Below are positions 8,901-10,087 of a stretch of DNA of 64,000 bases, one piece after another. The DNA comes from Gammaproteobacteria bacterium (GTDB lineage: Bacteria; Pseudomonadota; Gammaproteobacteria; JAADGQ01), in contig JAKITI010000002.1 in the NCBI GenBank assembly GCA_021648145.1, positions 135,888 to 199,887 on the forward strand, given 5' to 3'. The notes beneath the pieces were generated by a model. The model was not told the origin of the DNA and made no database searches. It saw only the letters and a list, made by a program, of their open reading frames with translations. Position 1 is the first letter of the stretch. Every line of letters starts with the position of its first letter. Position numbers and translations under genes: made by a program.

Positions 8901-9893
8901 ATGAAGTATTTAGTTAGATCAATGATATTGCTTTTAGTTATTTATAATAGCTCGGGCTGGAGTGCGACCATTGATGGGGAGGCCAGAATTATTGGTGGAG
9001 TCACCGCACCTAAAGATTCATGGCCAGCGATGGTCGCACTGCTGGATCGTGAAACTGTTGAAAAAATTGAGTCTGGGTTTGCCGTTGATAAAAATGATCA
9101 GTGGATTCCAATTTATCAAGCGAATTATCAAGCACAACTTTGTGGTGGTTCACTCATAGCTGCTAGGTGGATAGTCACTGCGGCACACTGCCTGTTTGAT
9201 CAAGCGGGAAGTTTACGAGGAGCCGATGCATTTTATGCTTTAGTGGGCACATCAAATTTAACCCAAGGCGGTGAAAGAAGGGTCGTTGCGAATATTTTTA
9301 TCCATCCTGAGTATAATATTGAATCATTCGATTTTGATATCGCATTATTAGAGTTGTCACAGAATGAAAACCCATCAGCAGAGCCAGTTTCACTATACTC
9401 TGGTTCACCAGAACCGGGTCAGAAAGTGATTGTAGCGGGGTGGGGAGTACGATTTTATTCAAGCTCTGGTACACCTTATGATTTGGAAGATGATGTTTTT
9501 GGTGATCGCCCCGCCAAGCTGGAAGAGGTTGAGCTTTCAGTGATTGATAACGTGCAATGCGGTATTATGAATCAGGGAGGCCGTGTGACTGAAAATATGA
9601 TGTGTGCTGGTTTTGTTGAAGGGGGCAAGGATAGTTGTATTGGCGATAGTGGTGGGCCATTAATGGCATGGCAAAGTGGTGAATACCGCCTTGCGGGGGT
9701 GGTGAATTATGGTTATGGGTGTGCGATGCCGGGAAGGTATGGTATTTACATGCGAGTGGAGCGCTTTCAAGATTGGCTGGCTTCATATACTGGTACTGTC
9801 AGGCCAGATAAAAGTGATTCTGAAACAGGTGCTTTTTATGGGTTATTTGTTTTTTTACTTATTTTTCGGTTAATTATATATAGAAGGAAATAA
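8901..9893 (+). CDS. secreted trypsin-like (S1) serine protease with C-terminal hydrophobic/basic anchor (VesB-like)
   Basis: N-terminal signal peptide. IIGG start of mature enzyme; TAAHC (His), DIALLEL (Asp), GDSGGPL (Ser). C-terminus ...SETGAFYGLFVFLLIFRLIIYRRK is a TM helix plus basic cluster, as in GlyGly-CTERM proteases of Vibrio. Confidence 0.85.
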   Translation: MKYLVRSMILLLVIYNSSGWSATIDGEARIIGGVTAPKDSWPAMVALLDRETVEKIESGFAVDKNDQWIPIYQANYQAQLCGGSLIAARWIVTAAHCLFDQAGSLRGADAFYALVGTSNLTQGGERRVVANIFIHPEYNIESFDFDIALLELSQNENPSAEPVSLYSGSPEPGQKVIVAGWGVRFYSSSGTPYDLEDDVFGDRPAKLEEVELSVIDNVQCGIMNQGGRVTENMMCAGFVEGGKDSCIGDSGGPLMAWQSGEYRLAGVVNYGYGCAMPGRYGIYMRVERFQDWLASYTGTVRPDKSDSETGAFYGLFVFLLIFRLIIYRRK

Positions 9894-9898
9894 GGTGT

Positions 9899-10087
9899 AT
9901 GGGTGATGTGGCAACTTGGGAAAAAGTCGTTGTTGCAATTCTTGCTGTTGGGCTTGTGATCTGGCTCTATCCGAGCTTGAAGCAGTCTCTGGCTCAGAGT
10001 AAAGAGGCGACAAAAGACTGGAAAGGTGTTTTGATACCGTTAGGTGTTGTGGTTATTTTTGTTGTATTTTTATTGGCAACGATTTAA
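9899..10087 (+). CDS. small two-TM membrane protein (hypothetical)
   Basis: 62-aa ORF 6 nt after the protease stop, with a weak SD (AAGGTG) and two hydrophobic helices. Overlaps the convergent mobAB 3' end by 35 nt; may be spurious. Confidence 0.3.
   Translation: MGDVATWEKVVVAILAVGLVIWLYPSLKQSLAQSKEATKDWKGVLIPLGVVVIFVVFLLATI

Follow-up and report, generated by a model that had tools for sequence, protein, structure and literature searches.

A gammaproteobacterial trypsin-like protease zymogen ending in a putative degenerate GlyGly-CTERM tag

The window analyzed here, a stretch of 64,000 nt, comes from a metagenome-assembled genome (MAG) deposited at NCBI with the label "Gammaproteobacteria bacterium." On its forward strand, at positions 8901 to 9893, we identified by open reading frame (ORF) analysis, the Pfam Trypsin match, and an AlphaFold2 model the gene of an S1A (trypsin-fold) serine protease zymogen of 330 residues with a sorting or anchoring tail at the C terminus. 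The comparison with homologous proteases indicates that this tail is a degenerate GlyGly-CTERM tag, in which the Gly-Gly pair (now T-G-A) and the proline of the hydrophobic helix have been lost. On balance, we favor the reading that this evolutionarily decayed tag, carried by a Sec-exported trypsin-like zymogen, is still subject to processing of the rhombosortase type. The protease is an ordinary kind of rhombosortase-type cargo, and no evidence of a new sorting system emerged; neither the adjoining adhesin gene nor the 62-codon ORF that follows the protease encodes a dedicated partner.

The protease domain spans residues 30 to 296 (nt 8988 to 9788). Pfam Trypsin (PF00089) matches residues 30 to 293 with 162.2 bits against a cutoff of 20.6 (E = 2.2e-47). 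In A1, an alignment of 17 sequences which extends without a break over protease domain, linker, and tail and which was also the input for AlphaFold2, the catalytic residues H96 (nt 9186 to 9188), D146 (nt 9336 to 9338), and S250 (nt 9648 to 9650), found within TAAHC, DIALL, and GDSGGP, are invariant, which confirms the intact trypsin-fold triad of the original prediction. The same holds for I30, G32, and G33, for the S1-pocket Asp D244 (in GKDSC), and for all six Cys residues, which fall at trypsin-fold disulfide positions as the pairs 81/97, 220/235, and 246/274. The AlphaFold2 model consists of a helix (residues 2 to 17), a disordered segment (16 to 28), a confident core (predicted local distance difference test [pLDDT] of about 90), a second disordered segment (302 to 312), and a terminal helix (313 to 329). 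Foldseek matched the core to enteropeptidase, matriptase, and trypsin, with E values of about 1e-22 and a TM(target) of 0.85 to 0.9 (about 0.86), and a sequence search of the PDB also placed the protein among solved S1A enzymes. From the fold, the triad, and the Arg|Ile-Ile-Gly-Gly site, the product is thus predicted to be a Sec-exported trypsin-like S1A zymogen, and its cleavage specificity is presumably the Arg/Lys preference of trypsin-like enzymes.

The N-terminal signal peptide that had been proposed together with the triad is likewise recovered, both in the hydrophobic N terminus (MKYLVRSMILLLVIY) and in the modeled helix 2 to 17. Nucleotides 8901 to 8987 of the forward strand would encode the signal peptide and a short propeptide, as judged from the sequence, the invariant residues I30, G32, and G33, and the model. 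In particular, the N terminus can be read as MKYLVRSMILLLVIYNSSGWSA-TIDGEAR|IIGG, with a predicted signal peptide at about residues 1 to 22 (K2 and R6 in the n-region, MILLLVIY as the h-region), a propeptide up to R29, and the activation bond R29|I30 immediately before IIGG (EAR29|I30IGG). Helices 2 to 17 and 313 to 329 are the sole long hydrophobic helices, consistent with a signal peptide and no further transmembrane (TM) segment before the tail. The coding sequence annotated by NCBI, MCF6235112.1, starts at Met8 (nt 8922) and thereby omits MKYLVRS, which is the signal peptide's basic n-region; the longer start at nt 8901 is kept in relatives, and the 323-residue form is identical to P0123 / MCF6235112.1. 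Downstream of the protease domain, a variable and disordered linker (residues 297 to 308; nt 9789 to 9824, forward strand) is recognizable from pLDDT values below 50 at residues 302 to 312 and from its substitution pattern, reported below. A scan for promoters and terminators, together with Rfam, over positions 8300 to 10400 returned nothing beyond background.

The tail comprises the 22 residues 309 to 330 (nt 9825 to 9890, forward strand; TGAFYGLFVFLLIFRLIIYRRK), and the protein ends in ...SETGAFYGLFVFLLIFRLIIYRRK. It is organized in three parts, namely, a TGA motif, a TM helix (FYGLFVFLLIF), and a basic cluster at the extreme C terminus (RLIIYRRK), in agreement with the TM helix (residues 313 to 329) and basic cluster (RRK at the end) of the original prediction. 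A1 matches the tail column by column to the canonical GGGA..WLLLPL..RRR tails of homologous proteases, e.g., DDGGGAISWLLLPLALLGFSRRR, and for this reason we conclude that it derives from GlyGly-CTERM. G310 is invariant over the 17 sequences, and A311 matches the alanine of GG-A in the canonical relatives, while position 309 is occupied by T in the window and in P0001, by A in P0002 to P0005, and by G in the rest of the alignment. Haft and Varghese reported that the hidden Markov model (HMM) misses some tails and accepted tails for which homology runs through trusted examples; here, A1 joins the tail both to that of P0066 and to the GGGA..RRR tails. The original prediction had considered such a tail unusual for this fold. 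On the contrary, about 38 of the 69 bacterial homologs within the top 120 homologs carry a motif/TM/basic tail, and such tails are therefore common on bacterial S1 proteases. Within the same top 120, at least 20 tails present GG and at least 8 to 10 a single G (xG[AS]).

The tail also shows signs of constraint. Compared with relatives at 76 to 78% identity, its ratio of nonsynonymous to synonymous substitution rates (dN/dS) is 0.19 to 0.28, a value that rests on small counts (24 codons), and that of the catalytic domain is 0.14 to 0.19; for the 11-codon linker (codons 296 to 306), the ratio is at least 1 against the homologous loci L001 and L004. G310-A311 and FYGLF are kept among relatives at 76 to 96% identity, and the neighboring linker varies freely. 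This pattern fits purifying selection acting on the sequence of the tail as well as on its hydrophobicity.

The GlyGly-CTERM (TIGR03501)/rhombosortase (TIGR03902) system, with which the window protein shares a three-part C terminus on a signal peptide-bearing protein devoid of other TM segments, has been described in some detail. Its cargo classes include secreted trypsin-like proteases, the tag by itself is enough for membrane association, and its helix is 34% Leu with Gly/Pro helix breakers. With VesA, VesB, and VesC of Vibrio cholerae, which undergo processing by RssP and depend on the type II secretion system for export, the window protease has in common an S1A prepro-enzyme whose short propeptide ends in Arg before I-x-G-G (the activation site of VesB is Arg32-Ile33), and with VesB it also shares an unstructured linker and a C-terminal motif/TM/basic tail. 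However, VesB (403 residues) contains an Ig-fold domain between the protease and the tail, whereas the window protein (330 residues) has only some 12 linker residues at that point, so that the layout of VesB orthologues (protease, Ig-fold, GlyGly-CTERM) is not found in it; moreover, its motif is T-G-A with no helix proline, compared to S-G-G-S in VesB. VesB fell outside the top 60 by sequence and the top 50 by fold and is not a close sequence relative. As a candidate for the nearest solved relative, VesB was discarded, since animal S1A proteases (enteropeptidase and matriptase) score higher. The VesB-like anchor of the original prediction hence stands as far as the zymogen layout and the alignment with canonical GlyGly-CTERM tails are concerned, but not with respect to a model match, the Gly-Gly pair, and the proline, all of which are lacking.

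Several observations weigh against a tag that is still processed. Neither the whole protein nor its last 47 residues matched the NCBIfam models of GlyGly-CTERM, PEP-CTERM, LPXTG, or MYXO-CTERM at E ≤ 10, so the HMM comparison suggested with the original prediction gave a negative outcome, and the tail does not reach the TIGR03501 cutoff (15.5 bits). The Gly-Gly signature is absent, since E-T-G-A in the window and E/G-A-G-A in its relatives retain the second Gly (G310) alone. The proline column of A1 is filled by Phe316, and the helix core (AFYGLFVFLLIF), with three Leu, five Phe, one Gly, and no Pro, is rich in Phe and Ile and not in Leu. In addition, we ran a custom profile of 71 canonical tails, none of them from the lineage of the window, on the window, which yielded 660 ORF segments in six-frame translation. 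The top score, 13.6 bits (E = 0.003), went to the internal tag of the upstream adhesin, described below. The protease tail came next with 7.5 bits (E = 0.25), barely higher than the best noise (6.6 bits). The score of the tail was reached by 0 of 2,000 full shuffles and by 60 of 2,000 shuffles preserving the three-part order; thus, there is significance in the three-part architecture, whereas that of the motif taken by itself is marginal. The canonical tags of the adhesin and of a second giant protein encoded at L004 are clearly unlike the protease tail.

To these points the substrate rules established for V. cholerae have to be added. RssP cuts VesB after G383 in S381-G382-G383-S384, and at P1 it tolerates no residue other than G, A, C, or E. 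In VesB, substitutions at P2 leave 116% (Ala) or 4% (Thr) of the activity and those at P1' less than 1% (Ala) or 6% (Phe), while P395V and L390V abolish processing, the helix proline P395 being needed. Read in the register of the family, P3 to P1' of the window tail are E-T-G|A, with Thr at P2 (4%) and Ala at P1' (<1%); in the shifted register, T-G-A|F, P1' is Phe (6%). By the V. cholerae rules, both registers would look like poor substrates, and the helix carries Phe316 in place of the VesB-type proline. Ala in the position of the second Gly is tolerated by V. cholerae RssP and is present in natural targets. Since GG-A is the natural motif in many canonical relatives of the window protease, rhombosortase specificity differs among species. 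Finally, a search for the rhombosortase signature (G.SG..H and then H..G...G) in the ORFs of the window and of 96 further loci (1.48 Mb) returned one spurious match and no rhombosortase.

Among the aligned relatives, P0066 passes TIGR03501 with 23 bits, P0006 obtains just 14.3 bits, and P0047, whose tail is visibly canonical, gives no match, from which it follows that TIGR03501 is insensitive in this protease family. Because the model misses tails whose derivation from GlyGly-CTERM is supported by homology, rhombosortase cargo is under-counted in uncultured gammaproteobacteria. A database query with a 40-residue tail yielded no candidate sharing three words and had no power, as it also missed the window's own protein, which is in the database.

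The main alternative is that the tail is now a plain, unprocessed membrane anchor, with the protease either tethered to the inner membrane and facing the periplasm or shed by an unrelated protease. This explanation, which we consider less likely, would account for a tail without the GG pair, the helix proline, and an HMM match, and also for Thr at P2, Ala or Phe at P1', and the loss of the proline, each of which abolishes the processing of VesB by RssP. It would agree as well with a profile score that comes mostly from the generic three-part layout, with the difference from the canonical tags that this lineage has retained, and with the tail of P0005, from which even the basic cluster has been lost. 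However, G310-A311 and FYGLF are conserved beside a freely changing linker, the tail descends from bona fide tags, and the recurrence of single-Gly variants on many homologs suggests a functional class. Furthermore, a zymogen activated at Arg|Ile would be expected to act extracellularly, as VesB does.

If the tag is instead decayed but still processed, as we prefer to think, the tail would hold the proenzyme in the inner membrane after export, and a rhombosortase encoded elsewhere in the genome would cut at or beside the conserved G310-A311. The new C terminus might then become lipid linked, in analogy with the cleaved end of VesB, which carries a glycerophosphoethanolamine moiety and whose arrival at the surface needs the type II secretion system. 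Since a known rhombosortase and type II secretion suffice, no new sortase-like enzyme is needed. No rhombosortase gene is present in the 64-kb window, and no rhomboid gene lies within 10 kb in the neighborhoods of P0047 and P0031. A profile search of genome contigs (A1 and generic trypsin patterns) gave, among the matches listed, only relatives with at most 41% identity and no rhombosortase neighbor; the species of the window was also not among them. The T-G-A, proline-free tail represents a natural test case for the extent to which rhombosortase specificity can drift away from the V. cholerae rules, to which the published VesB tail-swap assay applies (PMC13393428, PMC11389362).

The adhesin gene upstream of the protease (nt 8 to 8530, forward strand; its start is cut by the edge of the window) provides further information on the sorting system of this lineage. 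The last 409 residues of the product hold a choice-of-anchor U domain, a tag, a signal-like stretch, and a barrel. The anchor domain (nt 7442 to 7786, forward strand) matches NCBIfam NF041766 with 57 bits against a cutoff of 32 and is modeled as a beta-sandwich. It is followed at nt 7823 to 7909 (forward strand) by an internal GlyGly-CTERM-like tag, SGGGSVSLWTLFLMGLVVVVTRLSGRGRR, with SGGGS, a TM helix (182 to 196 in the model), and RLSGRGRR, which ranked first with the custom profile; TIGR03501 gave it 13.3 bits, below the cutoff of 15.5, over profile positions 1 to 16. The reading frame continues from nt 7910 to 8530 (forward strand) with a signal peptide-like stretch, LVLAICCAVSGLGVANA|QS (to nt 7960), and then, according to Pfam and the model, an eight-stranded OmpA-type barrel that ends with GAGFRF and the stop codon. 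The barrel was recognized by the Pfam families OMP_b-brl (5.5e-11) and OmpA_membrane (5.1e-10), and its best matches among solved structures are the TM domain of OmpA, Ail, and OmpX (TM score, 0.64 to 0.76). AlphaFold2 predicted the beta-sandwich, a disordered GGG, two helices (182 to 196 and 200 to 213), a disordered cleavage region, and a confident barrel (228 to 408). Because the independent assembly of L003, the locus of a 96% relative, reads identically, the internal position of the tag is not an assembly error.

The same fused layout was seen in at least 23 further cluster representatives, with hosts such as Shewanella xiamenensis, S. baltica, Rheinheimera, Paraglaciecola, and Halothiobacillaceae. 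It consists of SGGS, a TM helix, RRR, a hydrophobic segment that contains an AxA-like site, and a barrel of about 200 residues ending in Phe. In S. xiamenensis P0156, the internal tag scores 18.1 bits with TIGR03501, above the cutoff, and some homologs of the anchor domain end instead in a plain terminal GlyGly-CTERM. In the papers retrieved on the GlyGly-CTERM/rhombosortase system, the fusion of an internal tag with a barrel is not described. A second giant protein is encoded at L004 (nt 1 to 3242, reverse strand). It has a signal peptide of its own at the N terminus, and its internal tag, SSGGGSFTLWSLLFMGLFILWGRLR, closely resembles that of the window adhesin; the tag is followed by a signal-like segment (…ITAMSAQA|DTPGL) and then by a module of the LamG/pentaxin type. 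It was ruled out as an orthologue of the window adhesin, given that tblastn found no match at 1e-5.

GlyGly-CTERM co-occurs with a rhombosortase in 104 of 108 genomes, and the SGGGS tags on the two giant proteins therefore suggest that the lineage retains a rhombosortase. It is possible, although we put it forward only tentatively, that this enzyme has a relaxed specificity and takes both single-Gly, proline-free tags (TGAFYGLF) and SGGGS tags located inside precursors. The adhesin and the giant protein of L004 would then be two-in-one precursors, in which a helical hairpin would be made up of the tag, the shared basic cluster, and the internal signal peptide. Cleavage by the rhombosortase on one side of the hairpin and by signal peptidase on the other would release an adhesin with a lipid anchor and, in stoichiometric amount, an OmpA-type barrel or other secreted module. 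The internal-tag adhesin/barrel fusions are a more interesting by-product of this study than the protease tail, as the combination of internal tag, internal signal peptide, and barrel could matter more, namely, for the mounting of giant adhesins on the outer membrane.

The original prediction had placed the adhesin tail 400 bp upstream of the protease and, regarding both tags as the same kind, had read the adjacency of the two genes as a sign of a dedicated sorting system. In fact, the tag of the adhesin is internal and ends 991 nt ahead of the protease start, the ORF itself ending in the barrel, and its near-canonical SGGGS differs from the T-G-A-F-Y-G-L-F of the protease. The analysis of the homologous loci revealed a conserved order of RNase D, protease, 62-codon ORF, mobB/mobA (on the opposite strand), and a squalene/phytoene-synthase-like gene in L001, L004 to L006, and L007, the last of which keeps the order except that the 62-codon ORF is missing. 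Only the window and L003 have the adhesin in the place of RNase D. In L001 (nt 1579 to 8517) and L007 (nt 1795 to 8716), a glycogen cluster (GH77, GH57, glgC, and glgB) immediately precedes rnd and the protease; the cluster of the window is located at nt 33650 to 40555, about 24 kb downstream of the protease, and there is no rnd between the adhesin and the protease. This displacement of the glycogen genes with respect to L001 and L007 points to a rearrangement breakpoint just upstream of the protease. As far as gene order can tell, the adjacency of adhesin and protease is a lineage-specific rearrangement and not the sign of an operon, which removes a false lead and leaves a dedicated two-substrate system without support.

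Accordingly, we regard it as highly improbable that adhesin and protease share a dedicated, possibly new sortase-like system and that their adjacency reflects a functional coupling. Both products do contain a motif/TM/basic element, about 1 kb apart, and L003 has the same arrangement. However, the arrangement is limited to the window and that relative, the two tags have different sequences and different positions (internal in the adhesin, terminal in the protease), and both fit the known GlyGly-CTERM class. In genomes with several targets, moreover, GlyGly-CTERM genes have been reported to cluster neither with each other nor with the enzyme.

The small ORF downstream of the protease (nt 9899 to 10087, forward strand; from the ORF list and its homologs in L001 and L004) encodes a protein of 62 residues with two TM segments. 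As originally predicted, it follows the protease directly, beginning 5 nt past the stop codon, and it is probably cotranscribed with the protease, although not specific to it. The protein is 90% identical in L001 and L004, and the ORF is absent downstream of the L007 protease. In L001, at nt 10990 to 11011, the stop codon of the protease has been lost, which adds ...KREEGVWVT to the protein and makes its reading frame overlap with the beginning of the small ORF. A HMMER search against 1.84 billion cluster representatives found 114 matches at E ≤ 1e-3, nearly all of about 60 residues. Neither Pfam nor NCBIfam gave a match above noise for the window protein, and its homologs do not reach any Pfam threshold either; in the databases they are unnamed or called hypothetical, apart from two named [quoted passage not shown] The homolog of Methyloterricola oryzae, WP_045224172.1, lies between a glyoxalase gene and darP, with no protease neighbor. 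The sequence comparisons thus describe a genuine, uncharacterized small membrane protein from a family that nothing ties to the protease. It is very unlikely that the small protein pairs with the protease tail in the membrane and serves as an anchor, chaperone, or inhibitor. In favor of such a role, the two genes lie very close together or overlap in the window, L001, L003, and L004 to L006, the small protein is well conserved, and it is missing from L007, whose protease tail is the most decayed; against it, the family is widespread, the one member checked (that of M. oryzae) has glyoxalase and DarP as neighbors, and proteases with canonical tails occur without such an ORF.

Proteases with canonical tails from uncultured gammaproteobacteria of the Thiotrichales/Chromatiales type (P0006, P0045, P0047, P0053, and others) show 38 to 44% identity to the window protein over the whole protease. 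They share with it the linker-plus-tail layout, the G-A at the boundary between motif and helix, and the Leu at window position 319; unlike the window tail, theirs retain GGG-A, W, and the proline (..GGGAISWLLLPL..RRR), and their genomic contexts differ. With respect to the GlyGly-CTERM system as defined by its models, the window tail differs in falling under the TIGR03501 detection level, in having a Phe/Ile-rich helix without Gly-Gly before it, and in that its cognate enzyme has not been seen. The resemblance to PEP-CTERM/exosortase, LPXTG/sortase, and MYXO-CTERM/myxosortase is limited to the generic motif/TM/basic architecture, given that the window tail has no PEP, LPXTG, or invariant-Cys motif.

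In a MAG of the Thiotrichales/Chromatiales type, L011 (nt 7461 to 10942) encodes three tandem trypsin-like paralogs, also found in L012 and L013, all with GG-type tails; no rhomboid gene lies within 10 kb of them. With the custom profile, the L011 paralogs scored 16, 23, and 28 bits, the 28-bit one having been in the training set. A literature search on the assemblies and sequencing runs retrieved no papers. In the window, a 405-residue ORF on the reverse strand (nt 12266 to 13483), with no Pfam family on record, adjoins the squalene/phytoene-synthase-like gene and is conserved in the window, L003, and L004 to L006. Farther along, the window presents a tRNA-Ser(tga) gene at nt 15498 to 15587, followed by miaA, and L003 presents, after the Bax1-I gene, a phage-type integrase and a further gene (nt 13296 to 15218), a difference that may correspond to an element integrated at the tRNA.

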